Below the pieces are notes generated by a model. It did not search any database. It saw only the letters and a list, made by a program, of their open reading frames with translations, and was not told the DNA's origin. Below, one piece after another: positions 25,625-57,534 of a stretch of 64,000 nt of DNA; position 1 is the stretch's first letter, and each line of letters opens with the position of its first letter. The position numbers were made by a program, and so were the translations under genes. The stretch lies in NCBI GenBank assembly GCA_000830295.1, contig CP010425.1, positions 35,927-99,926 of the forward strand. Direction: 5' to 3'. The stretch comes from an archaeon GW2011_AR15. Its GTDB lineage: Archaea > Nanobdellota > Nanobdellia > Woesearchaeales > GW2011-AR15.

Positions 25625-26295
25625 TCCAGCTCTGCCTCTTTTATTTCGAAAACACCGTGGTTGCCTGAAAATCTTGCGCTGCTTTTTTTCACATTAATTT
25701 TTTTCCTGAAAAAAGGCGCACTCAGTACAAAACTCTCAAATTCACCGCCCTCGCCTGCAGGGTTTATTTTGTATTTTTCCTTCAGCCCCGCCAGCTCTTT
25801 CACTGCTTTCCTGTCAAGTCTTTTTCCGAGCCATGACTCATCAAAGGGGTATGCTGCAACGCCCACTATTATTACTTCAAATTTATTTTTCAGCAGGTCA
25901 TCAAGAAGCTGCAGCTGGTCAAGCTGCCATAAAGGATTGAAGCACCACAGCCCGAGCTCGTCGCATATCTTCTGTATCCTTGCTGCCTGGTAGACTGACC
26001 CGATTGCGCCTGTGACAACACCCTCAATCCGGAAAAGCTCAACAGCTTTTTTTACTGCCTCCTTCAGGTCCGCCAGTTCTGCTTCTTTTTTCCCTTCTGT
26101 CTCCGCAACAATCAAGGGAAGCCCTGCTGCCTCTGCCTGCAGCTGCGTAATCCCTGTATTGGGAGTGTGGAACATGTAGCTCTCGGGATTTTTTGATTTT
26201 ATGGTAATAAGGCTCGCAATTTCATGAAGCTGCATTGCCCTGTATATTGCATACGCAGAATCCTTCCCGCCTGAGAACAAGCCTGCCAGTCTCAT
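25621..26295 (-). CDS. PP-loop ATP pyrophosphatase of the MJ0570 family (diphthine-ammonia ligase Dph6-like)
   Basis: SGGKDS P-loop at the N-terminus and AGEGGEFESFV. The start is trimmed to MRLAGLFSGGKDS (ATGA overlap with cbf5). Confidence 0.6.
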   Translation of the reverse strand: MRLAGLFSGGKDSAYAIYRAMQLHEIASLITIKSKNPESYMFHTPNTGITQLQAEAAGLPLIVAETEGKKEAELADLKEAVKKAVELFRIEGVVTGAIGSVYQAARIQKICDELGLWCFNPLWQLDQLQLLDDLLKNKFEVIIVGVAAYPFDESWLGKRLDRKAVKELAGLKEKYKINPAGEGGEFESFVLSAPFFRKKINVKKSSARFSGNHGVFEIKEAELE

Positions 26296-27275
26296 TTTAT
26301 CCTTGGATATGTGCCCGGCTCCATTATTACCTTGCCTGCTTCCACTGCCATGCCCTTTTCTCCCATCATCTCTTTTGAGGTAAAGATAGCTTTCCCGTAG
26401 CATACAAGCTCGTCTTTCAGTGTGAATACTGCGACCATCTCCCCCTGGCTTATCCCTGATTCCAGCTTTGCTATCCCGGGAACTGCAAGAGAGGCTCCGT
26501 GGCACAGGCTGTCAACAGTGGTGTCCATCACCCATACCTTCGGGAGATGCCTCACAGCCTCCTCAACAGGCCTGATAACCTTTCTTATGAATTTCTCATT
26601 GTGGTGCTTCTTGTAGTAATACCATGCATCGGCGACATCCTGCAGGGTAAACAGCCCTTCTTCGCTGAAAGGCCCTGCCCTTGTCCTTCTCAGCTCTGCC
26701 ATGTGCGCCCCGCACTTCAGCTCCTGTCCCATGTCATGCACCAGCTTCCTGATGTATGTCCCTGCCTGGCAGCCGACCCTGAAAAGCACGTCCTGCTTTT
26801 CCAGGCCAAGCACTTCAATATAGTATATCCTCCTCTCCCTCAGCTGCCTTTTCACAGAGCTTTTTATCGGGGGCAGCTGCTTTATTTTTCCTGTGAATTT
26901 TTCAAATGCCTGGTAAAGCTCGTATTCAGGGACTTCCCTGTGGAGGTGCATCAGGCAGACATATTCTTTTCCTGCATTCAGCAGCGTCTGGATCACTTTC
27001 GTGGCCTTGCTTACTGCAACAGGCAGCACTCCTGTGACATTGGGGTCAAGCGTGCCTGAGTGCCCTCCCTTTTTTACCCCGAGAATCTTCTGGAGATAAG
27101 CAGAAACCTGATGGCTTGTCGGGCCCGCAGGTTTATCTATATTTATTACCCCGAGATTGAGAAGCTGCTCTACTGTCCTTTTGCCGGGATAAACCCCGAA
27201 CTTGTCGCTTGTCTCTGAGTCCTTCCTTACAAGAATCTCCCTTTTATTCTTCTCAAAAGGCAGTGTCGTTTCCAT
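26292..27275 (-). CDS. cbf5: H/ACA RNP pseudouridine synthase Cbf5
   Basis: TruB catalytic motif GHSGTLDPNVTGVLPV and a PUA domain at the C-terminus. The protein is 327 aa. Confidence 0.85.
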   Translation of the reverse strand: METTLPFEKNKREILVRKDSETSDKFGVYPGKRTVEQLLNLGVINIDKPAGPTSHQVSAYLQKILGVKKGGHSGTLDPNVTGVLPVAVSKATKVIQTLLNAGKEYVCLMHLHREVPEYELYQAFEKFTGKIKQLPPIKSSVKRQLRERRIYYIEVLGLEKQDVLFRVGCQAGTYIRKLVHDMGQELKCGAHMAELRRTRAGPFSEEGLFTLQDVADAWYYYKKHHNEKFIRKVIRPVEEAVRHLPKVWVMDTTVDSLCHGASLAVPGIAKLESGISQGEMVAVFTLKDELVCYGKAIFTSKEMMGEKGMAVEAGKVIMEPGTYPRIK

Positions 27276-30590: not shown

Positions 30591-31139
30591 ATGAAGATAA
30601 AAATAGGCGTGATGGGCTCTTCTGAAAAAATCAATGATATGACTCTCGTGCGCAGGGCCAGGGAAGTTGGAAAGCATATTGCCAGGCACAACTGCATCCT
30701 TGTAAATGGGGCAACAACAGGTCTGCCTGACCAGGCTGCGCAGGGCGCAAAAGAGGCAGGCGGATTTGTCCTTGGGATTTCCCCGGCCGAGAACATGAAG
30801 GAGCACAAGAAAAGGTACAAGCTTCCTTCAAAAGGATATGACGCAATAATATTCACCGGATTCGGATTCAACCAGAGGAACATCCTCAACATAAGGACTT
30901 CTGATGCCCTTGTTTTCTTAAGGGGCTCTCTGGGAACACTGAATGAGTTCACAATTGCATTTGAGGACGGGAAGGTTATAGGCGTCCTGGAAAACATGGG
31001 CGGGATATCCAGCTTCTTTGACGAGCTTATCCAGCTTACAAAAAAGAAGACAGGAGCAAAGATAATCTACGAGGCAGACCCAAAAATTCTCATCAGCAGG
31101 CTTGTAAAGGAAGTAAAAGCAAGAGACAGCCGGCGCTGA
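30591..31139 (+). CDS. LOG/TIGR00725-family Rossmann-fold protein
   Basis: KIGVMGSS...GATTGLP and the GSLGTLNEF motif typical of the LOG/YvdD/TIGR00725 fold. Confidence 0.55.
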   Translation: MKIKIGVMGSSEKINDMTLVRRAREVGKHIARHNCILVNGATTGLPDQAAQGAKEAGGFVLGISPAENMKEHKKRYKLPSKGYDAIIFTGFGFNQRNILNIRTSDALVFLRGSLGTLNEFTIAFEDGKVIGVLENMGGISSFFDELIQLTKKKTGAKIIYEADPKILISRLVKEVKARDSRR

Positions 31140-31312: not shown

Positions 31313-32239
<927 letters not shown>

Positions 32240-32240
32240 A

Positions 32241-32696
32241 ATGGCAGAAGAAAAAGTCGTGAAGATGGCTGTAACTGCGCTGAAAGAGGGTACTGTGATA
32301 GACCACGTACCTGCGGGCCAGGTTTTCAAGGTTGTTGATGTCATGAACCTCTATGAGTACAAGAAGGCGCTGAGGATCGGCATGTATCTTGACAGCAAAA
32401 CCTATGGAAAAAAAGATATCCTGAAGATTGAGGACAGGTATCTCACCCAGGACGAGGCCAATATGATTGCGCTAATAGCGCCGAATGCCACGATAAACAT
32501 AATCAAGGACTGGAAGGTCGCAAAGAAAATACAGGTCTCTGTCCCAGATGTTGTGACAGGGCTGAGGTGCGGCAACCCGAGATGCATAACAAGGTATGAT
32601 AAAATAAAGACCGTGTTCAGCGTGCTGGACAAAAAAACCCTGAAAGTAAGGTGCCACTACTGCGAGCATGTTTTCGGGAAAGAGGAAGTGATCTGA
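32241..32696 (+). CDS. pyrI: aspartate carbamoyltransferase regulatory subunit
   Basis: C-terminal zinc domain CGNPRC...CHYCEH. Lies immediately after pyrB. Confidence 0.85.
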   Translation: MAEEKVVKMAVTALKEGTVIDHVPAGQVFKVVDVMNLYEYKKALRIGMYLDSKTYGKKDILKIEDRYLTQDEANMIALIAPNATINIIKDWKVAKKIQVSVPDVVTGLRCGNPRCITRYDKIKTVFSVLDKKTLKVRCHYCEHVFGKEEVI

Positions 32697-33601
32697 TGAA
32701 AAAAGATTTCCTGAAGATGACCGACCTGACATCTCAGGAGCTGAAAGAAGTTATTGAGCTGGCTGTCCGGATAAAAAAAAATCCTGAGAAGTATTCCAAG
32801 AGTCTTTCCGGTAAAACTTTGCTGATGATTTTCGCCAAGCCTTCACTGAGGACAAGGGTGAGCTTTGAGACAGGCATGACAAAGTTAGGGGGGCATGCAA
32901 TATATTATGACATTGCGACTTCTCCTCTCGGCAGGGGCGAGACAATAGCTGATACTGCAAAGTGCTCTTCGCGCTATGTTGATATTATCTCTGCCAGGCT
33001 GTTTGAGCATGCTGATATTGTTGAACTGGCTAAGAATTCAGATGCCCCTGTCATAAACATGCTTACAAATCTTACACACCCGTGCCAGGGGCTTGCTGAT
33101 TTGATGACAATTAAGGAAAAGAAAGGAAAGCTGGAAGGGCTTAAGCTGGCATACCTGGGCGACGGGAACAATAATGTAACCCATTCTCTCCTGCTTGGCT
33201 GCGCTTTGAGCGGGATTAATATTTCTGTTGCAAGCCCCGAGGGAATGATGCCTGATGCTTCAATTGTTGCAGAGGCAAAGAAATTGGGAAAGGTTGTGAT
33301 TACGCATAATGCCGGGGAAGCGGCAAAAGACGCAGATGTCATTGTCACAGACACATGGATGAGCTACCACATCAGGCCCGAGAAAAAAGAAGAAAGGGTG
33401 AAAAAATTCAGGCCATACCAGGTCAATTCCAAGATAATGAAGCTGGCAAAGAAGGATGCCATTTTCATGCACTGCCTTCCTGCCTACAGGGATTATGAAG
33501 TAACTGCAGAGGTCATAGACGGCCCCCAGTCAGTTGTTTTTGACGAGGCAGAAAACAGGATGTGGACTGAGATGGCGCTTATGGTTGCACTGCTAAAATG
33601 A
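32696..33601 (+). CDS. ornithine-carbamoyltransferase-family enzyme with atypical substrate loop
   Basis: SLRTR, HPCQ, LGDGNNNVTHS and HCLPAY place it in the OTC-like clade. The canonical DxWxSMG loop reads TDTWMSYH. The ATG overlaps the pyrI stop by 1 nt. Confidence 0.65.
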   Translation: MKKDFLKMTDLTSQELKEVIELAVRIKKNPEKYSKSLSGKTLLMIFAKPSLRTRVSFETGMTKLGGHAIYYDIATSPLGRGETIADTAKCSSRYVDIISARLFEHADIVELAKNSDAPVINMLTNLTHPCQGLADLMTIKEKKGKLEGLKLAYLGDGNNNVTHSLLLGCALSGINISVASPEGMMPDASIVAEAKKLGKVVITHNAGEAAKDADVIVTDTWMSYHIRPEKKEERVKKFRPYQVNSKIMKLAKKDAIFMHCLPAYRDYEVTAEVIDGPQSVVFDEAENRMWTEMALMVALLK

Positions 33602-34818
33602 TAATAAAGGGCGGGAATGTTTTTCTTGACAGCAGGTTTGTTAAGAGGGATCTTTTTATTTCAGGGGAAAAGATAGTTTCTTCTTCATCCGGTGAAGTTA
33701 TAGATGCTTCAGGAAAATATGTTGTGCCCGGCCTGGTTGACATGCATGTACATTTCCGAGATTTTGGCGAGGAGCATAAGGAAGATTGGAGGAGCGGCTC
33801 TGAGGCTGCTCTTGCTGGAGGGATTACGACTGTGTTTGACATGCCCAACAATAAGGTTCCGATAACTTCTAAAAAGCTTTTAGATCAAAAGAGAGACAAA
33901 GTTTCTTCCAAAGCCCTTGTTGATTTTGAGCTATATATTTCTGTGAACAATTCCAATGTTGATGAGATTAATGAGAACAAAATTAAATTTGTCAAGCTGT
34001 ATTACGGCCATACAACAGGGGATAATAAGGTTGATGATGCCGGGGATATCTTCAAGAGAATCTCAAAGGATATTGTGATAGTTGTCCATGCCGAGGATAA
34101 CAGGGTGATGGAGGAGAACAGGAAGAAGTTTGATGTTTCAGAGAAGAGATATCATTCTCTGGTCAGGGATAATAAAGCAGAATACACTGCTGTAAAGGAT
34201 TTGATTGGGTTTGCTGAGAGGTATGGCAATAAACTGCATATTACCCATGTGAGCTGCAAGGAATCTGCTGAAATGATAAAAAATGCTAAGAAGAGAGGAG
34301 TTAAGGTTACCTGTGATACCTGTCCGCACTATCTTTTTTTAGATGATTCGCTTTATGATAAGATAGGGAACAGGGCAAAGGTAAACCCTGCCCTGAAGTC
34401 TGGAGAAGACAGAGAAGCATTGTGGAAATATCTGAATGACGGAACAATAGATTGTGTGTGTAGTGATCATGCGCCACATACATTGGAGGAGAAAAACAGG
34501 GATTATGAGAATTGCCCTTCCGGCTTTCCCGGAGTCGAGACAACACTGCCTTTAATGCTCACTGCTGTAAATGAGGGAAAGATAAAGCTTGAAGATTTTA
34601 TTCCAAAGATGACAACAGCGCCTGCAAAGATATTCGGCCTGGAGAGAAAAGGACAGCTTAAAGAAGGTTTTGATGCTGACGTTGTTATTATTGATTTGAA
34701 CAAGGAAGGAGCTATCTCCGGCAACAAATTGCAGACAAAGGTTAAGTGGAGTCCGTTTGAGGGGATGAAAACACAGGGGAGTAGCGTTAGAGTAATTATT
34801 ACTGACAAAGTATATTAG
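33598..34818 (+). CDS. pyrC: dihydroorotase
   Basis: Amidohydrolase metal motif DMHVHFR. 406 aa within the pyr cluster. Confidence 0.75.
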   Translation: MIIKGGNVFLDSRFVKRDLFISGEKIVSSSSGEVIDASGKYVVPGLVDMHVHFRDFGEEHKEDWRSGSEAALAGGITTVFDMPNNKVPITSKKLLDQKRDKVSSKALVDFELYISVNNSNVDEINENKIKFVKLYYGHTTGDNKVDDAGDIFKRISKDIVIVVHAEDNRVMEENRKKFDVSEKRYHSLVRDNKAEYTAVKDLIGFAERYGNKLHITHVSCKESAEMIKNAKKRGVKVTCDTCPHYLFLDDSLYDKIGNRAKVNPALKSGEDREALWKYLNDGTIDCVCSDHAPHTLEEKNRDYENCPSGFPGVETTLPLMLTAVNEGKIKLEDFIPKMTTAPAKIFGLERKGQLKEGFDADVVIIDLNKEGAISGNKLQTKVKWSPFEGMKTQGSSVRVIITDKVY

Positions 34819-34828
34819 AGCAAAACGG

Positions 34829-35383
34829 CTACGCAGTAATCCTGCTGTTTCTCAGAGCATTCTGGTACCAAGCTAGATTCGCACTAATGAGCTGGCTGTT
34901 TTGTTCCGATGGTAGCTTTAATACATCAACGCCATATTTCCCCAAAACATAAAACGCCCCTATATCAGCAACCAGTTCTTTTTCATCGTGAGAGCATTTT
35001 TCAAAATGCTCATATCCACTAAGTTCTATATCAAGTCCTTTCTGCTCTAGTTTTTCCTGGAGCAGATAGATTTGCCCTATCGCGTGCAGGACATGAGCCT
35101 GCTCATGCCCAAGCCTGTATAGGTTAGTTATGTTGCTGGCAGAATACTGGTAGAAAGCAATCCATATTGTATTATTGTCTAAAGTTAAAGACATAACTCT
35201 TGCCCCTGGTTTTTCATGCCTGTATTTTTCCAGCTCTTTCTCTATCCCTTCTTCAGAGCCCATCCACATTTTGTACACTTGTTTTGTAAACTCTGTGACA
35301 TCAGGGACAAAGCCAAGATCCAGATAAGCATGGTTCTCTCTCTGCACTGTTATTCCTAAAGCTGTCAGTTGAATATCAGTCAT
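34829..35383 (-). CDS. hypothetical protein with HExxH motif
   Basis: An HEQAH zinc-metallopeptidase-like motif lies inside GHEQAHVLHAIG. Confidence 0.35.
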   Translation of the reverse strand: MTDIQLTALGITVQRENHAYLDLGFVPDVTEFTKQVYKMWMGSEEGIEKELEKYRHEKPGARVMSLTLDNNTIWIAFYQYSASNITNLYRLGHEQAHVLHAIGQIYLLQEKLEQKGLDIELSGYEHFEKCSHDEKELVADIGAFYVLGKYGVDVLKLPSEQNSQLISANLAWYQNALRNSRITA

Positions 35384-35430
35384 AACCAGGCAAAAACAAC
35401 TGCAATTTATAAATATTATTGTTTTAGTTA

Positions 35431-36501
35431 CTACTCAGTACTAACATCTATCCCGACAGCCTCTCTGACATTCCTGAAGCCGTCCCTCTTCAGAAATCCC
35501 ACAATCCCTCTGTTTATGTTTTTAGCCATCATAGGCCCTTCATAAATAAACCCGGTATAGACCTGGACCAAAGAAGCGCCTGCCTTAATCTTCTCATAAG
35601 CATCCTCTGCTGTGAACACTCCGCCTACTCCGATAATAGGCAGCTTCCCTTTTGTCTTCTTATAGATATGCCTGATAAACTCTGTTGCTGTCCTTGTCAA
35701 TGGCCTGCCGCTCAACCCTCCGGCCTCATTTATTTTAGTCCTCAGCCCTTTCCTCGAAACTGTGCCGTTGACAGCTATCACGCCTGATATTTTTGTCTGC
35801 ATGCACACATCAACAAATTCATCCAGCTCTTCCCACGTCAGGTCAGGCGAGACCTTGACGAACAGGGGCTTATTCTTCCTGTTGGCCTTCTGCAGTGTTT
35901 TTATTATTTTCAATAAACTGCTCTTGTCCTGCAGCTTCCTCAGCCCCTGTGTATTAGGGGAGGAAACATTTATTGTCATGAAATCAGCAAAATCATAGAG
36001 CTTCTCATAGGTATAGAGATAATCCAAATAAGCCTCTTCAAGGGAGGTGTCTTTTGATTTCCCGATATTGAGCCCGACTATGAGCCTCTTATGTTTCACA
36101 GCTCTTAATTTCCCGGCTGCCCTGTCCGCGCCCATGTTGTTGAAGCCCATCCTGTTTATCAGGGCAAGGTCCTTCGGTAGCCTGAATATCCTCGGCTTCT
36201 CATTTCCCGGCTGCTCATTCCTTGTTATTGCGCCTACCTCAATGTGGCCGAAGCCAAGGGAGGGCATAATCTCTATCAGCCTGCATTCCTTGTCAAAGCC
36301 TGCAGCTATGCCCATGGGATTGTCAAACTTCATGCCTGCGACCTCTGTCCTCAGCATCGGATGGGAGTAGCCATAGAGTGATTTCAGCAGGCGTCTGGTC
36401 AGGGCAAATTTCCCGAAAAAAGAGAGTGAAGACGAGACAAAACCATGGATTTTTTCAGGGTCGGCTTTGAAAAGAATCGGCCTTATAATAGCTTTATACA
36501 T
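35431..36501 (-). CDS. pyrD: dihydroorotate dehydrogenase (class 2-like)
   Basis: DHOD barrel motifs GIAAGFDK, GFGHIEVG, NVSSPNT and GVGG. The start is trimmed to MYKAII. Confidence 0.8.
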   Translation of the reverse strand: MYKAIIRPILFKADPEKIHGFVSSSLSFFGKFALTRRLLKSLYGYSHPMLRTEVAGMKFDNPMGIAAGFDKECRLIEIMPSLGFGHIEVGAITRNEQPGNEKPRIFRLPKDLALINRMGFNNMGADRAAGKLRAVKHKRLIVGLNIGKSKDTSLEEAYLDYLYTYEKLYDFADFMTINVSSPNTQGLRKLQDKSSLLKIIKTLQKANRKNKPLFVKVSPDLTWEELDEFVDVCMQTKISGVIAVNGTVSRKGLRTKINEAGGLSGRPLTRTATEFIRHIYKKTKGKLPIIGVGGVFTAEDAYEKIKAGASLVQVYTGFIYEGPMMAKNINRGIVGFLKRDGFRNVREAVGIDVSTE

Positions 36502-36586
36502 GCTAAAATGATAATAAGCCCAAGGTAGTATATATAATTGATTGTTGGATAAAAAATATAAACTAAGGATTTTTACCTTATCCCAA

Positions 36587-37228
36587 ATGAAAGAGAGAGT
36601 CGCTGAGATACTTCTTAAGATAAAAGCTGTCGAGATATGCCCAAACAGCCCTTTCACGTACACATCAGGCATGATAAGCCCGATCTACATAGACAACAGG
36701 AAGATAATCTCCTATCCTGAAGAGAGAAGAAAGATACTTGAAGACCTGTGCGTCCTGATAGGCTCCCTCAATATAAAATTTGATGTGATTGCAGGAGTGG
36801 CGACAGCAGGCATACACTGGGCAGCATGGCTCTCAGAAAAATACAACAAGCCCATGGTATACATAAGGGACAGCGCAAAGGGCCATGGAAAGCAGAACCA
36901 GATCGAAGGCTATCTGGAAAAAGGAAAGAAAGTCCTTGTCATAGAGGACCACATAAGCACAGGCGGAAGCTCAATAGCTGCTGTGAAGGCTGTAAGGGAG
37001 TTTGGCTGCGAAGTGACTGACTGCATTGCAATAACAACATATGAATTCAGGGAAGCAAAGGAAAAATTTGATGAGGAAAAATGCGGCCTGCATACGCTGA
37101 CTGATTTCACGACCCTGATAAAGACAGCTGCTGAAAAGGGATATATCAGCAGTGAAGACGAGAAAAAAGTGCTGGAATGGAATAAATCCCCCCAGAAATG
37201 GGGAAAAAAGCACGGCTTTGAAAAATGA
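36587..37228 (+). CDS. pyrE: orotate phosphoribosyltransferase
   Basis: PRPP-binding motif VLVIEDHISTGGS. The start is taken at MKERV. Confidence 0.8.
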   Translation: MKERVAEILLKIKAVEICPNSPFTYTSGMISPIYIDNRKIISYPEERRKILEDLCVLIGSLNIKFDVIAGVATAGIHWAAWLSEKYNKPMVYIRDSAKGHGKQNQIEGYLEKGKKVLVIEDHISTGGSSIAAVKAVREFGCEVTDCIAITTYEFREAKEKFDEEKCGLHTLTDFTTLIKTAAEKGYISSEDEKKVLEWNKSPQKWGKKHGFEK

Positions 37229-38043
37229 GCTATCTTGACATCCTGAAAGAGAAAGCAGAAGAAGCAAACAGCATCCTCTGCTTCGGCATTGACCCTGTGC
37301 TTGAGAAGATGCCTGAGAAAGATATTGTAAACTTCTATTCAGACATATTTAACGCTATGGAAGGCGAGGATGTTTCTGTCCCATCAGTAAAGCCGAACAT
37401 TGCATTCTTTGAACAGTACGGACTGGAGGGATTATCCTCATTAAAGAAATTGCTTGAAGACATAAAAAAAAGAGACATCAGCATCATACTTGACGCAAAG
37501 AGGGGAGACATAGGGACAACAGCAAAGGCCTATGCAAAATCTGTTTTTGAATACTGGCAGGCAGATGCAGTAACCCTTCACCCCTATCTCGGCCATGATT
37601 CAATATCTCCCTTCCTTGAATACAAAAACAAGGGCGCATATGTGCTCAACAGGACTTCCAACAAAAGTGCTGTTGAGGTGCAGGATCTGAAATCAGACGG
37701 CAAGCCTGTCTATGAAAAAGTCTCTGAATTAATACTGAAATGGCATTCTCCCGGGCTTGGCTCTGTAATAGGCGCAACATATCCTAAAGAGCTTGAGCAT
37801 CTCTCAAATTTATTTGTAAAATCAGGAAAACAGGTGCCATTATTGATCCCCGGAGTCGGAAGCCAGGGAGGAAGCGCTGAGGAGGTTGTTTCCATTCTGA
37901 AAAAGACAAACAATCCTCTTTGGCTGCACAGGGTCAACAGCTCTTCGGGCATAAGCTATGCCTATCTGGAAAAAGACACTGGTGATTATGCAGGCGCGGC
38001 TGTTAAAGAGATGAAAAGGCTGAATAAAATTCTGAAATTATAG
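37225..38043 (+). CDS. pyrF: orotidine 5'-phosphate decarboxylase (type 2)
   Basis: DAKRGDIGTT motif. 272 aa. ATGA overlap with pyrE. Confidence 0.8.
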   Translation: MSYLDILKEKAEEANSILCFGIDPVLEKMPEKDIVNFYSDIFNAMEGEDVSVPSVKPNIAFFEQYGLEGLSSLKKLLEDIKKRDISIILDAKRGDIGTTAKAYAKSVFEYWQADAVTLHPYLGHDSISPFLEYKNKGAYVLNRTSNKSAVEVQDLKSDGKPVYEKVSELILKWHSPGLGSVIGATYPKELEHLSNLFVKSGKQVPLLIPGVGSQGGSAEEVVSILKKTNNPLWLHRVNSSSGISYAYLEKDTGDYAGAAVKEMKRLNKILKL

Positions 38044-39103: not shown

Positions 39104-39134
39104 TCAAGCACACAATTAAAAAAAATGGGCCTGA
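39104..39134. repeat. 31-bp direct repeat copy 1 (duplicate of the tRNA-Ile 3' end plus downstream 22 bp)
   Basis: tcaagcacacaattaaaaaaaatgggcctga differs at a single position from copy 2. Confidence 0.7.
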
Positions 39135-39189
39135 CTTGATTCCCACCAATCCTTTTCAGCATTGATGGGGAAAGTGTGTTTCCCTTCGG
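39135..39189 (-). repeat. conserved tRNA-trailer element, copy A (downstream of tRNA-Ile)
   Basis: In tRNA orientation it contains TTTCCCCATCAATGCTGAAAAGGATTGGTGGGAATCA, about 85 percent identical to the element downstream of tRNA-Ser. Confidence 0.55.
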
Positions 39190-39220
39190 TCAAGCACACA
39201 ATTAAAAAAAGTGGGCCTGA
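39190..39220. repeat. 31-bp direct repeat copy 2 (overlaps the genuine 3' end of tRNA-Ile)
   Basis: tcaagcacacaattaaaaaaagtgggcctga. It is 55 bp from copy 1. Confidence 0.7.
39204..39210 (-). terminator. oligo-T tract directly after tRNA-Ile
   Basis: T7 on the transcribed strand begins 2 nt after the discriminator base. Confidence 0.5.
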
Positions 39221-39315
39221 GCGGATTTGAACCGCCGACCAATGGCTTTCTTAGATAACATGTACCAATGGCGGTCATATAAGACCATCGCTCCACCAGG
39301 CTAAGCTACAGGCCC
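39212..39315 (-). tRNA. tRNA-Ile with anticodon UAU, containing a 30-nt canonical BHB intron (plus-strand 39248-39277) after position 37
   Basis: Folded by hand. Acceptor GGGCCTG/CAGGCCC; D-stem GCTT/GAGC; anticodon stem ATGGT/GCCAT; loop CTTATA|intron|A; T-arm GGCGG-TTCAAAT-CCGCT. Loop nt 32-35 (CTTA) pair perfectly with intron TAAG, giving 3-nt bulges at both splice sites. Confidence 0.65.
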
Positions 39316-39365
39316 GTAAAAAGACCCTGGTGTGATGCCATGGAAACTTAATCGATTTTTATAGT

Positions 39366-39668
39366 TTACTCATTCCCGACGACTTCATTGTGCTGGGTTT
39401 CGAGTTTCTTCACGAAGAAGTTGAGGCAGTCTAGCCCGCAGAAAGTTGCTTTTTTCCTGAAATCCTCAGGGCCGAAAAATAATGCGTATCTGGGCTCGCC
39501 TTCATGGACTGTGCCGCAGGTGGCGCATATGTTGGAAGGGAATTTTTTCTCAAACCCCTCCAGCCTGGCCTTCAGCAGCCTGGCTATGTTGCCCTCATAC
39601 AGGTCCTTCTCTATTGCTTTTAAGTCCTTATAATTCATAGAACTAATCATGTTTGAGAGCCGGTTCAT
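39366..39668 (-). CDS. hypothetical small Cys-containing protein
   Basis: 100 aa with CATCG...CGLDC pairs, a possible zinc-binding fold. Lies between the two tRNA genes. Confidence 0.35.
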   Translation of the reverse strand: MNRLSNMISSMNYKDLKAIEKDLYEGNIARLLKARLEGFEKKFPSNICATCGTVHEGEPRYALFFGPEDFRKKATFCGLDCLNFFVKKLETQHNEVVGNE

Positions 39669-39798
39669 ATGTAAATCCTATATAGGAGTGCTGTTTATAT
39701 TCTTTTTCCTTTTCCAATTATGAAAATTCACTGAAATCTCTTTTTGTAGTGAATTTTCAACTTGAAAATCAGCTAAAGTGATTTTCAATTAAGAAAAC

Positions 39799-39806
39799 TA
39801 TAAAAA
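39799..39806 (+). promoter_or_regulatory. TATA box (TATAAAAA) with upstream purine-rich BRE-like GAAAAC for tRNA-Ser
   Basis: Ends 26 nt upstream of the first tRNA nucleotide (39832). Confidence 0.45.
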
Positions 39807-39831
39807 ACAACATGAATTACTTGGATAATAT

Positions 39832-39958
39832 GCCGCGGTCGCATAGCCCGGCCATTGCGATGGATTGCTAGGAGCTTTTGTTCCTCAGAAACCTACACTG
39901 GCCCACAAATATCCATTGTCCTTTTTGGGACACGTGAGTTCAAATCTCACCCGCGGCG
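39832..39958 (+). tRNA. class II tRNA-Ser(GCU) with about 40-nt intron (39871-39910) in the anticodon loop
   Basis: Acceptor GCCGCGG/CCGCGGC; anticodon stem ATGGA/TCCAT; loop TTGCTA|intron|A; long variable arm GTCC-TTTTTG-GGAC; T-arm GTGAG-TTCAAAT-CTCAC. The BHB is relaxed (3 of 4 central pairs). Confidence 0.55.
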
Positions 39959-39960
39959 TC

Positions 39961-39967
39961 TTTTTTT
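39961..39967 (+). terminator. oligo-T tract directly after tRNA-Ser
   Basis: T7 begins 3 nt after the discriminator base. Confidence 0.5.
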
Positions 39968-39969
39968 CA

Positions 39970-40046
39970 AGTGTGGCTAAGTGAAACGCATGCCGCACCT
40001 GTTTTCCATCAATGCTTTTTCTAAAAGGATTGGTAAGAATCACACT
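39970..40046 (+). repeat. conserved tRNA-trailer element, copy B (downstream of tRNA-Ser), flanked by CGCGGCGyCTTTTTTCA direct repeats
   Basis: Contains TTTTCCATCAATGCT...AAAAGGATTGGTAAGAATCA. The direct repeat at 39952-39969 recurs at 40047-40063. Confidence 0.55.
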
Positions 40047-40099
40047 TCGCGGCGCTTTTTTCATCAGTTTTATAAACCAGCACTGATTTTCTATATGCC

Positions 40100-48728: not shown

Positions 48729-49604
48729 ATGCAATCCGTAATTATGAAGCCCGAGTGGCTCAGGATAATGCCTCCAAAGGAAAAGTTCAGTGAGGTAAAA
48801 GGGATAATAAGCAGCCACAGGCTCAACACTGTCTGCCAGGAAGCGCACTGCCCAAATATGTCAGAGTGCTGGTCTTCTGGGACAGCAACATTCATGCTGA
48901 TGGGAGACACCTGCACAAGAGGATGCAGGTTCTGCGCTGTAAAGACAGGAAAGCCGGGAGAGCTTGACAGGACAGAGCCGGCGAGGCTGGCAAAGGCAAT
49001 AAAAGAGCTCGGGGTCTTTGATTATGTTGTGCTTACTTCTGTTGACCGCGATGACCTTGAAGACCAGGGCGCCAATCATCTTGCCGAATGCATAAGGGAA
49101 ATAAAAAAGCAGTATCCGGGGATTATTGTTGAAATCCTTATCCCTGATTTCAGGGGAGACAAAGAGCTTCTCAGAATTATAGCTGATGCCGGGCCTGAGG
49201 TAATTGCGCACAATGTTGAGACTGTTGAAAGGCTTCAGAGGAAAGTGAGGGATTACAGGGCAAACTACATGCAGTCATTGTCAGTTCTCCGGAATGTGAA
49301 AAAGCTCAGCAGAAAAATCTATACAAAAACTTCCATAATGCTCGGGCTTGGTGAAAAAGAGGATGAAGTAATCCAGGCAATGAAGGATTTAAGAGCCATT
49401 GATGTTAATATTATAACATTTGGGCAATACCTAAGACCATCACAGAAACATTTGGCAGTCAGCGAATATGTAAAGCCAGAAAAATTTAAATATTATGAAG
49501 AGGTTGCCAATAGCCTGGGGTTTTTATATTGCGCGTCTGGCCCTTTTGTAAGGAGCTCATATAAAGCAGGGGAATTATTTTTGAAGGGGAAAATAAATGG
49601 TTAA
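48729..49604 (+). CDS. lipA: lipoyl synthase
   Basis: CPNMSEC auxiliary-cluster motif, radical SAM CTRGCRFC, and KPEWL at the N-terminus. Confidence 0.9.
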   Translation: MQSVIMKPEWLRIMPPKEKFSEVKGIISSHRLNTVCQEAHCPNMSECWSSGTATFMLMGDTCTRGCRFCAVKTGKPGELDRTEPARLAKAIKELGVFDYVVLTSVDRDDLEDQGANHLAECIREIKKQYPGIIVEILIPDFRGDKELLRIIADAGPEVIAHNVETVERLQRKVRDYRANYMQSLSVLRNVKKLSRKIYTKTSIMLGLGEKEDEVIQAMKDLRAIDVNIITFGQYLRPSQKHLAVSEYVKPEKFKYYEEVANSLGFLYCASGPFVRSSYKAGELFLKGKING

Positions 49605-50661
49605 GAAAGTCATAGGGAAATTCGAGGTTGAATACCTGCAGGTTCTTGATGAGGAAGGCAATGCTGATGAGGCCCTCATGCCGAAGCTGACAGGCAGGCA
49701 GATAAAAGAGCTCTATGAAAACATGATCCTTGTCAGGACTTTTGATGACAAGGCTTTCTCAATGCAGAGACAGGGGAGGATAGGCTCATACCTCCAGGTA
49801 AAGGGGCAGGAAGCAGCACAGGTGGGCTCTGTCTATGCCCTACAGGACAAGGACTGGCTGTTCCCTATGTACAGGAGCAGTGGGGCATTGCTTGCAAGGA
49901 AGCAGCCCATGCATCTTCTCTATCTTTACTGGGGCGGAGATGAACGCGGTTTGAAAAGTCCGGAGAATGTGAATAATTTTCCCATTGCAATACCTGTCGG
50001 GACGCAGATACCTCATGCAGTAGGTGCTGCCTGGGCATCAAATCTCCTTGGAAAAAAAGAAGTCTCGCTGGTATTCTTCGGAGAAGGCGCAACATCAAAG
50101 GCAGATTTCCACACTGCAATGAATTTTGCAGGAGTCTATCAGGTTCCGTGCATTCTTGTCTGCGAGAACAACCAGTGGGCAATTTCTGTGCCGAGAAAAA
50201 TACAGACGCATTCAGAGACAATAGCACAGAAGGGAATTGCATACGGGGTTAAGGGAATCCAGGTCGACGGGAACGATATTTTTGCAGTCTACAAAGCAGT
50301 AAAAGAGGCTGTTGATGATGCAAGAGCAGGCAAAGGCCCTGCATTAATAGAGTGCATGACCTACAGGATAGGGGACCACAGCACAAGCGATGACGCAAAA
50401 AAATACAGGGGCGAAAAAGAAGTCGAGGAGTGGGCGAAAAAAGACCCTGTGCTCAGGCTTGAGAGATATATGAAAAAGAAAAAGCTGCTTGATGAAGCGT
50501 ATAAGAAAAAAGTCCTTGAGAATGCAAAAGAGACTGTTGAGAAAGAAGTGAAGAAATATGAGGAGTATCCTGCGCCTGACAGGGAAGATATCTTCAAGTA
50601 CACATTTGCGGAGATGCCGCAGCAGCTGAAAGAGCAGTTTGAGGAGTTCAAGAATGGTTAG
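49597..50661 (+). CDS. pdhA: 2-oxoacid (pyruvate) dehydrogenase E1 alpha subunit
   Basis: TPP-binding GDG...N region and a phosphorylation-loop-like YRIGDHSTSDD. Confidence 0.8.
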   Translation: MVKKVIGKFEVEYLQVLDEEGNADEALMPKLTGRQIKELYENMILVRTFDDKAFSMQRQGRIGSYLQVKGQEAAQVGSVYALQDKDWLFPMYRSSGALLARKQPMHLLYLYWGGDERGLKSPENVNNFPIAIPVGTQIPHAVGAAWASNLLGKKEVSLVFFGEGATSKADFHTAMNFAGVYQVPCILVCENNQWAISVPRKIQTHSETIAQKGIAYGVKGIQVDGNDIFAVYKAVKEAVDDARAGKGPALIECMTYRIGDHSTSDDAKKYRGEKEVEEWAKKDPVLRLERYMKKKKLLDEAYKKKVLENAKETVEKEVKKYEEYPAPDREDIFKYTFAEMPQQLKEQFEEFKNG

Positions 50662-51625
50662 CATGAATAATGTAGAAGCAGTGAGATCCGCGCTTGACCA
50701 GGCGCTGAAATCTGATAAGAGTGTTGTTGTGCTTGGGGAAGATGTCGGAGTAAACGGCGGAGTCTTCAGGGCAACTGACGGGCTGCAGAAAAAATACGGA
50801 AAAGACAGGGTAATTGACACTCCGCTGAGCGAGGAAGGCATTGTGGGAATGGCAATAGGCCTGGCTGTCACCGGGGTAAAGCCTGTTGCAGAGATACAGT
50901 TCTCTGGATTTTTGCCTGCTGCATTTGACCAGATATTCAGCCATGCCGCAAGGATAAGGTCAAGGAGCAGGGGAAGGTTTACATGCCCGATGGTGATAAG
51001 GGCGCCTGCAGGCGGGGGAATACGGGCTCTTGAGCTTCACTGCGAAATGCCGGAAGCGCTGTTTGCGCATATCCCTGGGATAAAGGTTGTCTGCCCGAGT
51101 ACGCCTTATGACACAAAAGGCCTGCTGCTGGCTGCAATAAAAGACCCTGACCCTGTGATATTTTTAGAGCCTATGAGGATCTACAGGGCAGTAAAGCAGG
51201 ATGTCCCTGAAAAGGAATACACAATTCCGCTGGGAAAAGCCAATGTCATAAAAGAAGGAACTGACATCACAATAATAACCTGGGGCTCAATGGTGAAATA
51301 CACCCTTGATGCTGTTGCCGGGCTTGATGATGTTGATGCTGAGGTAATTGATCTGCGGACAATATATCCTTTTGATACTGAGGCGATAATAAAGAGCGTC
51401 GGGAAAACAGGCAGGGCGGTTGTCGTGCATGAGGCCCCGAAGACCTCCGGGTTCGGAGCTGAGATTGTGGCAACAATAAATGAGAAAGCTCTTGACTCCC
51501 TGGATGCGCCTGTGCTGAGAGTTACAGGCTATGACACTGCGCTTCCGTTTGCAAGGCTGGAGATGCAGTTCATACCGAGCAAAGAAAGGATTATAAAGGC
51601 AATTAACGAGGTTATGGATTATTAA
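50654..51625 (+). CDS. pdhB: 2-oxoacid dehydrogenase E1 beta subunit
   Basis: Transketolase-like pyrimidine-binding and C-terminal domains. Start taken at MVSMNN. Confidence 0.8.
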   Translation: MVSMNNVEAVRSALDQALKSDKSVVVLGEDVGVNGGVFRATDGLQKKYGKDRVIDTPLSEEGIVGMAIGLAVTGVKPVAEIQFSGFLPAAFDQIFSHAARIRSRSRGRFTCPMVIRAPAGGGIRALELHCEMPEALFAHIPGIKVVCPSTPYDTKGLLLAAIKDPDPVIFLEPMRIYRAVKQDVPEKEYTIPLGKANVIKEGTDITIITWGSMVKYTLDAVAGLDDVDAEVIDLRTIYPFDTEAIIKSVGKTGRAVVVHEAPKTSGFGAEIVATINEKALDSLDAPVLRVTGYDTALPFARLEMQFIPSKERIIKAINEVMDY

Positions 51626-51637
51626 TTGAAAAATAGA

Positions 51638-52846
51638 ATGGTATTTGATTTTAAGTTCCCGGATGTTGGAGAAGGCATTACTGAAGGGACTATTGTAAAG
51701 TGGAAAGTAAAAGCAGGCGATTCTGTCAAGGCTGATGAGCCTATTGCTGAAATCGAGACAGACAAGGCAATTGTTGATATCCCTACGCCAAAGGCCGGAG
51801 TAATCCTGAAAATCAATCACAGAGAGGGAGAAACAATAAAAGTCGGGGAGACCCTTGCAGTTATTGGCGAGAAGGGAGAGAAGGCAGGAGAAACAAAAGA
51901 AAAAAAAGAAGGCAGGGAAGATGAGCACTACACAGGCAGTGTCGTCGGCTTCCTTGAAGAGGCAAAGGATGAGTTTAAGCCAGGAAGAAGCTCCAAAAAA
52001 GAGTCGGAGTCTTCAGAGAAAAGAATAAGGGCCACCCCGAAAATAAGAATGCTTGCAAAAGAGCTCAATGTTGAGCTGAAAAATATTGTCCCGACAGGCC
52101 ACGGCGGAAGAATAAGTGAGGAAGACATCAGGAAGTCTGTTAAAAAAGCAGCTAAAAGAGAATATCACGGCAAGGTTACAAGGAGGGAACTGAAAGGGGT
52201 AAGAAAAACTATTGCAAAAAACCTTGTTGAAGCCCACCTGGCAACTGTTCCTGTAACCACAATGCATGACGCTGATGTAACAGGGCTCTGGGAAGCAAGG
52301 GAAAAAGAAAAAATAAGCGCAGAAAAGAAGGGAGTAAAGCTTACCTTCCTCCCATATATAATAAAAGCAGCAACTGAAGCGCTGAAAAAGCATCCTGAGA
52401 TAAACTCAACTCTTGAGGGTGATGAAATTGTGCTGAAAAACTACTATCATATAGGGTTTGCCGTTGATACTGATGACGGGCTTATAGTGCCTGTGGTAAA
52501 AGACGCTGACAAGAAATCCCTGATGGAACTTGCGAAAGAACTGGCAGAGCTGGGAGAAAAGGCAAGGGCAAGGAAGCTTGGGATAGATGAAATAAAAGGG
52601 GGTTCTTTCTCAATAACTAATTTAGGCTCTGTGGGAGTGAAATATTTTACGCCGGTAATTAATTATCCTGAAAGCGCCATACTCGGCCTGGGAAGCATCG
52701 GGAACATGCCGGTCGCATCAGAGAATGACATCAAAATAAGAAAAATACTCCCTCTTTCGCTTACATTCGATCACAGGGTAATAGACGGCGCGCAGGCGTC
52801 AAGGTTCATGCTGGATTTAATCAAAAATCTGGAAAGCATAAAATAG
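51638..52846 (+). CDS. dihydrolipoamide acyltransferase E2 (lipoyl domain, E3-binding domain, catalytic domain)
   Basis: Lipoyl-lysine context IETDKA, a PSBD segment, and the catalytic DHRVIDG motif. The track start at 51626 is TTG, so the ATG at 51638 is used. Confidence 0.8.
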   Translation: MVFDFKFPDVGEGITEGTIVKWKVKAGDSVKADEPIAEIETDKAIVDIPTPKAGVILKINHREGETIKVGETLAVIGEKGEKAGETKEKKEGREDEHYTGSVVGFLEEAKDEFKPGRSSKKESESSEKRIRATPKIRMLAKELNVELKNIVPTGHGGRISEEDIRKSVKKAAKREYHGKVTRRELKGVRKTIAKNLVEAHLATVPVTTMHDADVTGLWEAREKEKISAEKKGVKLTFLPYIIKAATEALKKHPEINSTLEGDEIVLKNYYHIGFAVDTDDGLIVPVVKDADKKSLMELAKELAELGEKARARKLGIDEIKGGSFSITNLGSVGVKYFTPVINYPESAILGLGSIGNMPVASENDIKIRKILPLSLTFDHRVIDGAQASRFMLDLIKNLESIK

Positions 52847-53351: not shown

Positions 53352-54206
53352 ATGGCAGAAAACAGGGTTGTTGTTATCGGCGGTTCCGGTGTGCATGACA
53401 GCCCCGGCTTCAAAGAGGCTGTATGGGAAACACTGGATTTGGGAACACCTTATGGCAGGATAGAATATCAGGAAAGAGAAGATGGTGTAGTCTTTATACC
53501 AAGGCATGGCCATAATGTGAAATATGCCCCCCATCTTACGCAGTATATTGAAAACAGCCTGGCAGCAGCCCATCTTGGTGATGTCGTTATAGCCACCAGC
53601 GCAGTAGGGACATACCATCCTGAAAAAATCAAAGTCAAAGGCCTGGTTATTCCTGATGACTATATAGACATGACAACAGGAAGGAAATCTGACCCTTATG
53701 GCGAGGGAATTACGGTCCATGCAAACCCAAGGCCTGCATTTACTGAAGAAGTCAGGAAAATTCTTCTTGAGAGCGGGAAGAAGCATTCGCATGCTTTTAA
53801 TGGAGTTACAGATGGCGGCACATACCTGACTATGGACGGATCGAGGTTCGGCACAAGAGCTGAAGGGAACATGAGGGCATATTATGCTGACCTTGCGGGA
53901 ATGACCTGCAATCCTGAAGCTGAGATAATGATGTATCTTGATATGCCTTATGCACTTGCTGCATTTGTTGTTGATGAGGATGTTGACGCTGACCACGAAC
54001 TGTCAACAATGGCTGTTATGAAAGAGCTTTCACAGCCTGATAAAGTCCCTGCTTTCATAGAGACTGCAATTGAGCTTGCAAAAGAAATGAAACTGCCTGA
54101 ACGTGACCCGAGAATTGCAACAGGAATAATAGAACAGGGTCTGGAAAGGATCGCCAATAAATACGCAAGACAAAGAGCAGGATATCTTATGCAGAAATAC
54201 AAGTAA
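53352..54206 (+). CDS. 5'-methylthioadenosine/purine nucleoside phosphorylase (PNP family 1)
   Basis: VVIGGSG, RHGHN and SAVG motifs of the MTAP/PNP family. Confidence 0.7.
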   Translation: MAENRVVVIGGSGVHDSPGFKEAVWETLDLGTPYGRIEYQEREDGVVFIPRHGHNVKYAPHLTQYIENSLAAAHLGDVVIATSAVGTYHPEKIKVKGLVIPDDYIDMTTGRKSDPYGEGITVHANPRPAFTEEVRKILLESGKKHSHAFNGVTDGGTYLTMDGSRFGTRAEGNMRAYYADLAGMTCNPEAEIMMYLDMPYALAAFVVDEDVDADHELSTMAVMKELSQPDKVPAFIETAIELAKEMKLPERDPRIATGIIEQGLERIANKYARQRAGYLMQKYK

Positions 54207-54950
54207 TTATTTCATGAAATTCCACTCTCTTGTGGAATATTTTTCTTCTACCAGCTGCCTTGCCCGCTTAATCTCCTCTTCAGCAAGCTCCCCGAAGCTG
54301 AATTCCTTCCCTTCTGTAAATCCCTTGAGCAGGGCATTATATGTATCTTCCCTCGTAACTTTTTTGTAATCTATCACTCTTGTAACCCTTTCTTCAACAG
54401 ACTTTATTATTTTATCGCGGATTTTCTCATCAGGAATTTTGAGAACAGTGAACATCCTCTTCACATCAACATCATATAATATTGTGCCGTGCTGCAGCAA
54501 TACGTTATTCCTCCTTGTCTGCGCATTGCCTGATATCTTCTTATTTCCGACAACAATATCATTTATAGGCACAAACTGCGCATCAATCCCTATATTTTTC
54601 AGCCCTTTGACCACCCAGCCGCATATTTCTTTATAGCTCTCGATTATATTTTTCGGGAACATTCCAACCGGACCAATTACGGAATAAGTTATCTCTCCGT
54701 CATGGGAATGATAGACTGCCCCGCCGCCTGTCCTTCTTCTCACTATGCTGATGCCAAGCTTCCTGCATTTTCTCGCGTCAACAACATCATCCATGCTCTG
54801 GAAATATCCTATGGAAACCGCACTCGGAAGCCATCTGTAGAATCTTATTGTCGGCTCTCCCCCTTCTGCAACTGATTCAGAGACTGCCTCATCTATCGCC
54901 ATATTCATGAAAGCATGGTCCATTTCCAGGGGTATGACTCTCCACTTCAT
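54207..54950 (-). CDS. lplA: lipoate-protein ligase A, catalytic (N-terminal) domain protein
   Basis: BPL/LPL catalytic motifs RRTGGGAVYH and KISGNAQ. Confidence 0.8.
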   Translation of the reverse strand: MKWRVIPLEMDHAFMNMAIDEAVSESVAEGGEPTIRFYRWLPSAVSIGYFQSMDDVVDARKCRKLGISIVRRRTGGGAVYHSHDGEITYSVIGPVGMFPKNIIESYKEICGWVVKGLKNIGIDAQFVPINDIVVGNKKISGNAQTRRNNVLLQHGTILYDVDVKRMFTVLKIPDEKIRDKIIKSVEERVTRVIDYKKVTREDTYNALLKGFTEGKEFSFGELAEEEIKRARQLVEEKYSTREWNFMK

Positions 54951-55219
54951 TTTTGATCAACTGCCTTTTTCAGCACTCTTGCTATTGCGGCCGCATCCAG
55001 GCCTATCAGCTGGTAGCCCTTTTCTGCTATGACTTTCTGCAGCTCTTCTGCAATCTCTTTTTCATCAAAATCCTTTTTTATGCCCGCCAGTCTTTTCTCT
55101 ATCTCTTTTATTGATTCTTCAGGGTGCGCAAAGAAATCGCCTGTAATATCAACTTTCTCTATTTTGTCACCGAAATCTACTTTTATAACTAGAAGTTTTC
55201 CGCCCTCAACTTTCTCCAT
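54947..55219 (-). CDS. lipoate-protein ligase C-terminal domain protein (LplB-like)
   Basis: A small acidic protein encoded directly upstream of, and overlapping, the LplA catalytic-domain gene. Confidence 0.5.
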   Translation of the reverse strand: MEKVEGGKLLVIKVDFGDKIEKVDITGDFFAHPEESIKEIEKRLAGIKKDFDEKEIAEELQKVIAEKGYQLIGLDAAAIARVLKKAVDQK

Positions 55220-57524: not shown

Positions 57525-57534
57525 AGGAGGAAAC

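Follow-up and report, generated by a model that had tools for sequence, protein, structure and literature searches.

An intron-containing tRNA-Ile(UAU) gene of a DPANN archaeon, its probable role in reading AUA, and the 3′-end-copy modules at its locus

The usual archaeal route for reading the isoleucine codon AUA relies on a tRNA-Ile(CAU) that is modified to agmatidine by TiaS. A small tRNA locus in the 64-kb window (the whole stretch of DNA analysed here) raises the question of whether its owner, a DPANN-type archaeon, reads this codon in another way, as it holds an intron-interrupted tRNA gene whose anticodon, once the intron is placed, reads UAU. We conclude that the locus is very probably a functional gene for an AUA-reading tRNA-Ile(UAU), and set out below the evidence for the gene, its occurrence in other archaea, the competing assignments and the repeated structures found downstream of it.

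The tRNA gene and its intron

The Rfam model RF00005 matched the minus strand at 39315..39212 with 54.3 bits (gathering score 29; E 6.7e-9 for the 64-kb window) and aligned end to end, covering model positions 1-71 of 71. This was the sole above-threshold Rfam match in the 64-kb window, and a search around the locus at E ≤ 10 returned, besides this gene, chance-level matches only. The alignment contained one large insertion, of 31 nt, lying right after C32-U33-U34-A35-U36-A37 and made up of a 30-nt intron plus A38. On the minus strand, the 104 nt of 39212-39315 consist of exon 1 (GGGCCUGUAGCUUAGCCUGGUGGAGCGAUGGUCUUAUA), the intron (UGACCGCCAUUGGUACAUGUUAUCUAAGAA) and exon 2 (AGCCAUUGGUCGGCGGUUCAAAUCCGCUCAGGCCCA). 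Exon 1 (39278..39315, minus strand), delimited by the Rfam covariance model (CM) and manual indexing, supplies the 5′ strand of the acceptor stem, the D arm, the 5′ strand of the anticodon stem and loop nucleotides C32-A37, with the anticodon U34-A35-U36 at 39281-39279. The 30-nt intron (39248..39277, minus strand) was placed at the canonical position 37/38 by the CM insertion, the minimum free energy (MFE) fold and the homologues. Exon 2 (39212..39247, minus strand) begins with A38, the 3′ strand of the anticodon stem and a 5-nt variable loop (UGGUC), and continues with the T arm (GGCGG UUCAAAU CCGCU, T loop UUCAAAU), the 3′ strand of the acceptor stem and the discriminator A73; CCA is not encoded. 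Splicing yields a class I tRNA of 74 nt, with CUUAUAA as its loop and UAU as its anticodon, in which every cloverleaf pair is kept in the CM alignment. An earlier sequence-only reading had proposed an intron-containing tRNA with a UAU anticodon here; the CM insertion after CUUAUA bears this identification out, and the coordinates, the minus strand, the 104-nt length, the 30-nt intron and the loop CUUAUAA given at that time all agree with the Rfam model and the fold.

Upstream of the gene, a putative promoter comprising a BRE-like AAAC and a TATA box (AAACTATAAAAA; 39356..39367, minus strand) was read from the sequence, and ends 41 nt before the mature 5′ end. A copy of AAACTATAAAAA stands at 39796-39807, ahead of a divergent tRNA-Ser gene described below, and homologues of the tRNA-Ile(UAU) gene have TATA-like boxes upstream at similar distances; on these grounds the element would act as an archaeal promoter. 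A run of seven T residues (39204..39210, minus strand), which starts one base past the tRNA 3′ end, is likely an archaeal oligo-T terminator, a function assigned from what is established about archaeal termination.

The sequence of the locus is reproducible, as the 1.2 kb around the tRNA-Ile(UAU) gene is base-for-base identical both in contig JAGVXU010000003.1 (352 kb; GCA_018303605.1) and on a 25.6-kb contig of the independent JGI metagenome 3300002502, and a neighbouring 338-aa protein is identical on the same two contigs. Elsewhere in the window, a pseudouridine synthase of the archaeal/eukaryal Cbf5 type, in which Pfam finds TruB_N, DKCLD and PUA domains, is encoded at 26292-27275. A LOG-like protein encoded at 30591-31139 is 70% identical to one that adjoins tRNA-Ile(UAU) in two metagenome-assembled genomes (MAGs) of Woesearchaeota type.

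To our knowledge, every canonical archaeal intron pairs with positions 32-35. In the unconstrained MFE fold of the tRNA-Ile(UAU) precursor (z = -2.86 against shuffles), UAAG of the intron pairs with loop positions 32-35 (CUUA) to form a 4-bp H helix, helix h has 5/5 pairs, and the last two intron nucleotides together with A38 form a 3-nt 3′ bulge (AA|A). A 3-nt 5′ bulge (U36, A37 and the first intron nucleotide) is possible, with a closing helix h′ of only 2 bp (G-C and A-U). When the cloverleaf was enforced in both cases, the strict bulge-helix-bulge conformer had -28.9 kcal/mol versus -35.3 kcal/mol for an alternative, and this favoured pairing, 6.4 kcal/mol more stable, buries the 5′ splice site in a helix. 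The classing of the motif as strict or relaxed would depend on the splicing endonuclease. The sequence-only reading had placed the splice sites in two 3-nt bulges around a 4-bp helix; the helix and the 3′ bulge are present in the MFE fold, while at the 5′ bulge the energy model prefers another pairing. The intron and exon 2 each contain GCCATTGGT; these two copies were considered as alternative splice boundaries and rejected, since splicing there would leave an 11-nt anticodon loop.

Spread of the gene across DPANN archaea and the decoding of AUA

To place the gene among other archaea, one genome per species (GTDB representatives) was scanned with a pattern consisting of the 5′ half through CTTATA, a gap of 20-50 nt, so that an intron had to be present, and the T loop. 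The same gene architecture was found in at least 119 species, almost all of them DPANN, a number that measures abundance and not the invariance of anticodon or intron, as the pattern itself demanded CTTATA and an intron. The matches listed come from Woese-, Pace-, Micr-, Aenigmat-, Nano-, Undin-, Parv- and Altiarchaeota, and also include Nanopusillus, Nanobsidianus, Nanoclepta and Haiyanarchaeum; complete DPANN genomes (CP010514.1 and AP031373.1) are represented as well. The Rfam CM supported 17/17 sampled pattern-matched homologues, with scores of 52.8-67.4 bits.

The 119 homologues among the matches listed and the studied gene together made up a family of 120 genes. The intron lies at 37/38 in all 120 family genes among the matches listed, with a length of 13-36 nt and an unconserved sequence. 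Also among the matches listed, the anticodon stem keeps 5/5 pairs in 118/120, nucleotide 38 is A in 110/120, and the intron provides a partner for CUUA (UAAG, UAGG or UGAG) with 4/4 H pairs in 100/120. If an H helix of 4 bp and an h′ of at least 2 bp are taken as the criterion, 85/120 members among the matches listed have a strict motif, the studied gene included, and a 2-bp h′ such as the one seen here is the commonest class (61/120 among the matches listed). The closest homologue among the matches listed has exons 96% identical to ours and a wholly different 36-nt intron, a difference that, as judged from the sequences, looks like the signature of selection on the exons and on the intron's structure, not on its sequence. 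Likewise, retention of the architecture by at least 119 species, against a background of freely drifting introns, argues that the exons are under purifying selection. The most similar mature tRNAs among the matches listed (88-96% identity) come from Candidatus Woesearchaeota MAGs. Some of the MAGs with similar tRNAs are labelled 'uncultured Methanosarcinales'; we take these to be mislabelled bins.

It had been supposed that tRNA-Ile(UAU) is confined to a few reduced lineages, Nanoarchaeum and Korarchaeum among them. That view agrees with a survey of 167 archaeal genomes, which found this tRNA only in Korarchaeum cryptofilum and Nanoarchaeum equitans (PMC6000648). The present scan overturns it: the trait is widespread across nearly all DPANN phyla, with at least 119 species against 2 of 167 in surveys of cultivated archaea, and it had been reported from ARMAN genomes in 2011. 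Both Nanoarchaeum and Korarchaeum have, as here, archaeal tRNA-Ile genes with a UAU anticodon; unlike the DPANN MAGs, in which the trait is common, they are the sole cases among 167 mostly cultivated genomes. The studied genome is DPANN-type, and the gene is therefore expected in it. An intron-containing tRNA-Ile(UAU) is standard for the lineage, and one of a kind that was published for DPANN in 2011.

The closest published precedent is that of ARMAN-2, -4 and -5 (Micrarchaeota/Parvarchaeota), in which Fujishima et al. (2011) described a tRNA-Ile(UAU) whose canonical intron, 25 nt long, was cut in vitro by the ARMAN-2 endonuclease, together with the loss of both tRNA-Ile(CAU) and TiaS (PMC3239211). 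The ARMAN genes and the studied gene share DPANN ancestry, the UAU anticodon, a single 37/38 intron, a bulge-helix-bulge motif (a putative one in the studied gene) and, if our assignment of role in the studied genome is right, direct decoding of AUA in place of TiaS and agmatidine. They differ in the intron (25 nt versus 30 nt here, of unrelated sequence), in the minimal, 2-bp h′ of the studied gene, and in lineage, which is probably Woesearchaeota-like in our case. In the ARMAN genomes, TiaS and tRNA-Ile(CAU) have been shown to be missing, whereas for the studied genome the negative result covers the window.

Isoleucine identity is backed by a second tRNA from a related contig of a groundwater metagenome (L123), which has the loop CUGAUAA with the isoleucine anticodon GAU and, at 37/38, an intron of 15 nt. 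It matches the studied gene in the variable loop, the T arm and the acceptor 3′ strand, with a compensatory change of pair 6-67 as the sole exception, and nearly matches it in the 5′ acceptor strand and the D stem; the two differ in the anticodon stem. This likeness, seen at the level of sequence, supports an isoleucine identity for the tRNA-Ile(UAU) and is in line with Korarchaeum, whose tRNA-Ile(UAU) contains an intron and resembles the tRNA-Ile(GAU) of the same genome (PMC6000648); for the studied gene, the resemblance is to the tRNA-Ile(GAU) of a relative.

We also looked at how heavily the codon is used. In the 42 ORFs of at least 200 aa in the window, ATA makes up 604/1150 isoleucine codons (52.5%), or 39.6 per 1000 codons. 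It is the most used isoleucine codon in the window, and an efficient AUA reader is therefore required. Neither the Rfam CM nor ARAGORN in intron mode found a CAU tRNA in the 64-kb window, and none of its 24 ORFs of at least 300 aa had a match to a TiaS-family Pfam model. A literature search combining TiaS with DPANN yielded nothing beyond the ARMAN paper (PMC3239211).

These observations bear on the best-surviving alternative, namely that the gene is a relic or a redundant extra and that AUA is decoded by an agmatidine-modified tRNA-Ile(CAU), with TiaS encoded elsewhere. The 64 kb in view are part of a 352-kb contig, and TiaS and tRNA-Ile(CAU) could lie elsewhere in the genome; the locus has also been rearranged, as seen from the copied tRNA 3′ end that lies just downstream. 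Against this, no damage is seen in any cloverleaf pair or in the putative promoter, terminator and splice motif, at least 119 species have retained the architecture despite free change of the intron sequence, AUA is the commonest isoleucine codon in the window, and the ARMAN-2, -4 and -5 genomes, which were checked in full, offer a case in which TiaS and tRNA-Ile(CAU) are both gone (PMC3239211). We therefore consider a relic or redundant gene improbable and favour a functional tRNA-Ile(UAU).

For this functional tRNA-Ile(UAU), a pathway can be drawn from established archaeal tRNA biology. The gene would be transcribed from the BRE/TATA promoter to the T7 run, RNase P would remove a 5′ leader of ~15-20 nt, and the archaeal splicing endonuclease would cut in the two bulges around the helix formed by loop positions 32-35 and the intron UAAG. 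An RtcB-type ligase would then join the exons to give the loop CUUAUAA, CCA would be added after transcription, and A37 would be modified. The tRNA would be charged by IleRS and would decode AUA through U34-A pairing, with a modification of U34 perhaps limiting the reading of AUG. It would thereby replace, or at least supplement, the tRNA-Ile(CAU)/TiaS agmatidine route, and TiaS is expected to be absent from the genome.

Comparable solutions are known outside the archaea. Bacterial tRNA-Ile(UAU), such as that of Mycoplasma mobile, an organism without the C34-modifying enzyme (PMC3575796), likewise reads AUA directly with U34; it differs in being bacterial, in having no intron and in replacing lysidine and TilS rather than agmatidine and TiaS. 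Eukaryotic nuclear tRNA-Ile(UAU) is alike in its UAU anticodon, its 37/38 intron and the pairing of the 3′ part of that intron with the anticodon region. In contrast, the splicing enzymes recognise their substrate differently, and a role of the intron in modification is known from the eukaryotic side only: in yeast, Pus1 needs the intron of pre-tRNA-Ile(UAU) to form pseudouridine at positions 34 and 36 (PMC11408192). It is a matter of speculation, by analogy, whether the archaeal intron might have a comparable role in the modification of U34.

The ARAGORN assignment and the neighbouring tRNA-Ser gene

ARAGORN in default mode found no tRNA in the window. In intron mode, it reported a tRNA-Ser(tga) at c[39211,39315] with a 30-nt intron at 35/36, i.e., an intron of the same length (30 nt) moved three bases upstream relative to the 37/38 placement. 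The sequence-only reading had named an intron placed elsewhere, with a different anticodon, as an outcome that would count against it. Such an outcome did occur with ARAGORN, and it fails the comparison with the homologues.

The alternative that follows from this call is a serine tRNA, with an intron at 34/35 (35/36 in ARAGORN numbering), the loop CUUGAAA and the anticodon UGA. Besides the ARAGORN report itself, it draws on the equal fold energies of the UGA- and UAU-spliced sequences (-34.8 kcal/mol each). A serine tRNA would carry a long variable arm and, in most cases, G73, whereas the molecule in question has a 5-nt variable loop (UGGUC), without the long arm of class II, and the discriminator A73. 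Both cuts would fall inside the CUUA/UAAG helix and not in bulges, and the Rfam CM places the insertion after position 37. Applied to the 120 family genes among the matches listed, the ARAGORN register gives UGA, UGC, UGU, UAA, UAG and UGG, an inconsistent identity that stems from free variation of the two bases at the intron's 3′ end, within the 3′ bulge. ARAGORN itself labels 81/120 family members among the matches listed as Ile(tat), with the rest scattered over Ser, Ala and Thr.

A genuine tRNA-Ser further sets the two apart. In the same small tRNA locus, ~500 bp from tRNA-Ile(UAU), ARAGORN in intron mode identified a divergent class II tRNA-Ser(GCU) at 39832..39958 on the plus strand, with a 40-nt intron at 37/38 (39871-39910, plus strand). 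By MFE alone, the spliced 88-nt sequence adopts the full cloverleaf of a class II tRNA; unlike tRNA-Ile(UAU), it has a long variable arm and G73. The serine assignment of the studied gene is thus effectively refuted, with hardly any probability left to it, and the ARAGORN label is an artefact of intron placement.

The comparison also carries a message for annotation pipelines. ARAGORN gave a wrong anticodon for about one third of the family genes among the matches listed, and Rfam missed the neighbouring intron-containing tRNA-Ser(GCU), even at E ≤ 10.

The 3′-end-copy modules behind both tRNA genes

The less expected part of the locus, and one that deserves a further look, lies downstream of the tRNA genes. 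Both tRNA-Ile(UAU) and tRNA-Ser(GCU) are followed by a module of their own, composed of a trailer, a conserved hairpin of ~40 nt (core CCAUCAANGC-loop-AAGGNUUGG), a second 3′ end, copied from the same tRNA from the T loop onwards, and a T run. The module behind tRNA-Ile(UAU) occupies 39104..39203 on the minus strand and contains the trailer, the hairpin (39142-39169; stem CCCAUCAAU/AUUGGUGGG, GAAA loop), a decayed copy of the tRNA-Ile 3′ end starting from T-loop position 58 (AATCAAGTCAGGCCCA; 39126-39141), and a T8 run followed by a repeat of the first 14 trailer bases (39104-39125). Its unit forms an 86-nt direct repeat in ~1.4 copies. The module behind tRNA-Ser(GCU), on the plus strand at 39959..40061, contains the hairpin core (40003-40042) and a decayed copy of the tRNA-Ser 3′ end (AATCACACTTCGCGGCG; 40038-40054), with the T run after it. 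Both second copies in the window are decayed, with 3-4 mismatches. The second copy of the tRNA-Ile end can no longer form the T stem, and the first copy is therefore the functional end.

Similar arrangements occur beyond this locus. The hairpin was found 45-110 nt downstream of tRNA-Arg, Ser, Ile, Gly, Val and Glu genes in other DPANN genomes, and of both tRNAs of the window. ARAGORN predicted 242 tRNAs in the DPANN loci examined and in the window. For 20 of these, the final 13 nt recur no more than 260 nt downstream, versus none (0/242) with such a repeat upstream. The 3′-end copy usually begins at position 58 and may run 0-53 nt into the flank. When metagenomes were scanned for the hairpin core alone, five contigs were recovered; in four of these the hairpin stands ~50 nt behind a tRNA-Arg(UCU), Arg(CCU) or Ser(CGA) and is followed by the 3′ end of that tRNA, and the fifth starts too near the hairpin to show any tRNA. 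Units may also be arranged in tandem, as in L069 (69 nt, three copies) and L030 (127 nt). One hairpin pair, which adjoins an invariant G.G mismatch, covaries as U-A, A-U, G-C and C-G over nine copies without a mispair.

Several identities for the module were tried and rejected. A small ORF is at odds with loop indels of 1 and 5 nt between copies, and no C or D boxes stand where a C/D-box sRNA would need them. The end of a large integrated element was likewise rejected, as no third copy of either tRNA 3′ end was found in the 64-kb window, no integrase domain in the flanking ORFs and no match to the module in viral contigs. These negative results, together with the consistent size of the unit, lead us to regard the module as a small entity and not as the stump of a large element.

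Position 59/60 is the counterpart in the T arm of position 37/38. In the main family, the junction between hairpin unit and copy reads GG-UGAG-AA|U60, in which UGAG can pair with U54-A57 and GG with C61-C62, and the junction, together with the T stem, takes the form that the 3′ half of a bulge-helix-bulge splice motif would have at 59/60. This complementarity reaches 4/4 pairs in two sequence families, against 2.7% of background 4-mers. As a general property of 3′-end duplications, a spliceable junction was rejected, since it fails in other families, e.g., L035, L023 and L030. Published tRNA genes do use this position: the intron of ARMAN-2 tRNA-Cys lies at 59/60 (PMC3239211), and the permuted tRNAs of Thermofilum pendens join there (PMC3218864).

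Most likely, the 3′-end duplications arise at the DNA level, by recombination or integration directed to the T loop, an interpretation akin to the model of tRNA disruption put forward by Sugahara et al. (PMC3293823). Our reading of the junction sequences is that in some families the junction may happen to be, or may have been selected to be, spliceable. It is conceivable, though we hold it with considerable doubt, that the real oddity of the locus is the module and not the tRNA, with the module being either an undescribed miniature element that targets T loops or an early stage in the birth of a T-loop intron or a permuted tRNA gene. In the latter version, read-through transcripts could still be spliced into the correct tRNA.

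With respect to the tRNA, the studied gene would be one more example of DPANN archaea reading AUA by means of a UAU tRNA and not through the agmatidine system. The modules downstream may in turn bear on how archaeal tRNA genes gain introns and become split or permuted.

The neighbouring tRNA-Ser(GCU) gene

Divergent from the tRNA-Ile(UAU) gene and ~500 bp away from it lies the second intron-containing tRNA gene of the window, a class II tRNA-Ser(GCU) gene (39832-39958, plus strand), and the promoter box AAACTATAAAAA is common to both. The tRNA-Ser(GCU) intron (39871-39910) is 40 nt long and is located at position 37/38; three of the four pairs are formed in the central helix of its bulge-helix-bulge splice motif, which looks relaxed. 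This gene was detected neither by Rfam, even at E<=10, nor by ARAGORN in default mode.

A repeated module downstream of tRNA genes

The window contains two copies of a downstream module, at 39104-39203 (minus strand) and 39959-40061 (plus strand), and the module was also found in comparison loci L008, L078, L122/L125, L123, L124, L126, L024, L069, L052, L035, L030, and L023. The tRNA gene is followed by a gap of 45-110 nt, a conserved hairpin and then a repeat of the 3′ end of that same tRNA, starting at T-loop position 58. Among the 242 tRNAs predicted by ARAGORN in the window and the fetched DPANN loci, such a copy (last 13 nt, within 260 nt) was present downstream of 20 and upstream of none. 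At one covarying pair of the hairpin all four Watson-Crick types were seen, and in the main module family the junction GG-UGAG-AA|U and the T arm can together adopt a splice-motif-like structure at 59/60. The module matched none of the viral contigs searched, and no integrase was found near it.

Tandem arrays, in which the repeated unit is either the module or just the hairpin, were present in three loci: a 42-nt hairpin unit in at least three copies (L024, ~3560-3679), a 69-nt unit in three copies (L069, 296-440) and, behind a tRNA-Gly, a 127-nt unit in at least three copies (L030, downstream of 4434). On L123, a related groundwater contig, a homologous module lies behind a tRNA-Ile(GAU) gene (643-768, plus strand) that carries a 15-nt intron at 37/38 and an additional ~35-nt insertion in its D region, the latter probably a second intron. 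Rfam did not report this gene, and the ARAGORN label tRNA-Cys(aca) was rejected as a mislabel.

AUA codon use and the labels of related MAGs

Of the Ile codons in the 42 window ORFs with a length of 200 aa or more, 52.5% are ATA (39.6 per 1000 codons), which makes ATA the most used of them; the G+C content of this genome region is ~44%. DPANN-type tRNA-Ile(UAU) genes, up to 96% identical to the window gene, were found in co-assembly-bin MAGs titled 'uncultured Methanosarcinales archaeon' (loci L008, L015, L023, L029, L030, L034, L035, L052, L055, L077, L078, L091, L097, and L109); this taxonomic label is probably wrong for these MAGs.

Other gene content of the window

Across 54000-64000 the G+C content falls from ~45% to 33-40%; this region, with genes for a Laminin_G_3 protein of 702 aa and an RHS-repeat/TcdB-like/FG-GAP protein of 1488 aa (57535-62001), may be a surface or toxin region gained horizontally. 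Two adjoining minus-strand ORFs (2552-4573 and 4691-6739) match the ribonucleotide reductase large subunit, with an ATP-cone domain in only one of them, and could be tandem duplicates or else have a split or intein-type arrangement. A 342-aa protein (12796-13824, minus strand) carries a eukaryotic-type Ser/Thr protein kinase domain together with a DnaJ domain at its N terminus. Jointly, 31322-38043 and 49597-52846 hold a cluster of genes for a near-complete set of pyrimidine biosynthesis enzymes (pyrB, pyrI, pyrC, pyrD, pyrE, and pyrF) and a 2-oxoacid dehydrogenase operon (E1alpha/E1beta/E2), a metabolic capacity that is above that of many DPANN genomes.
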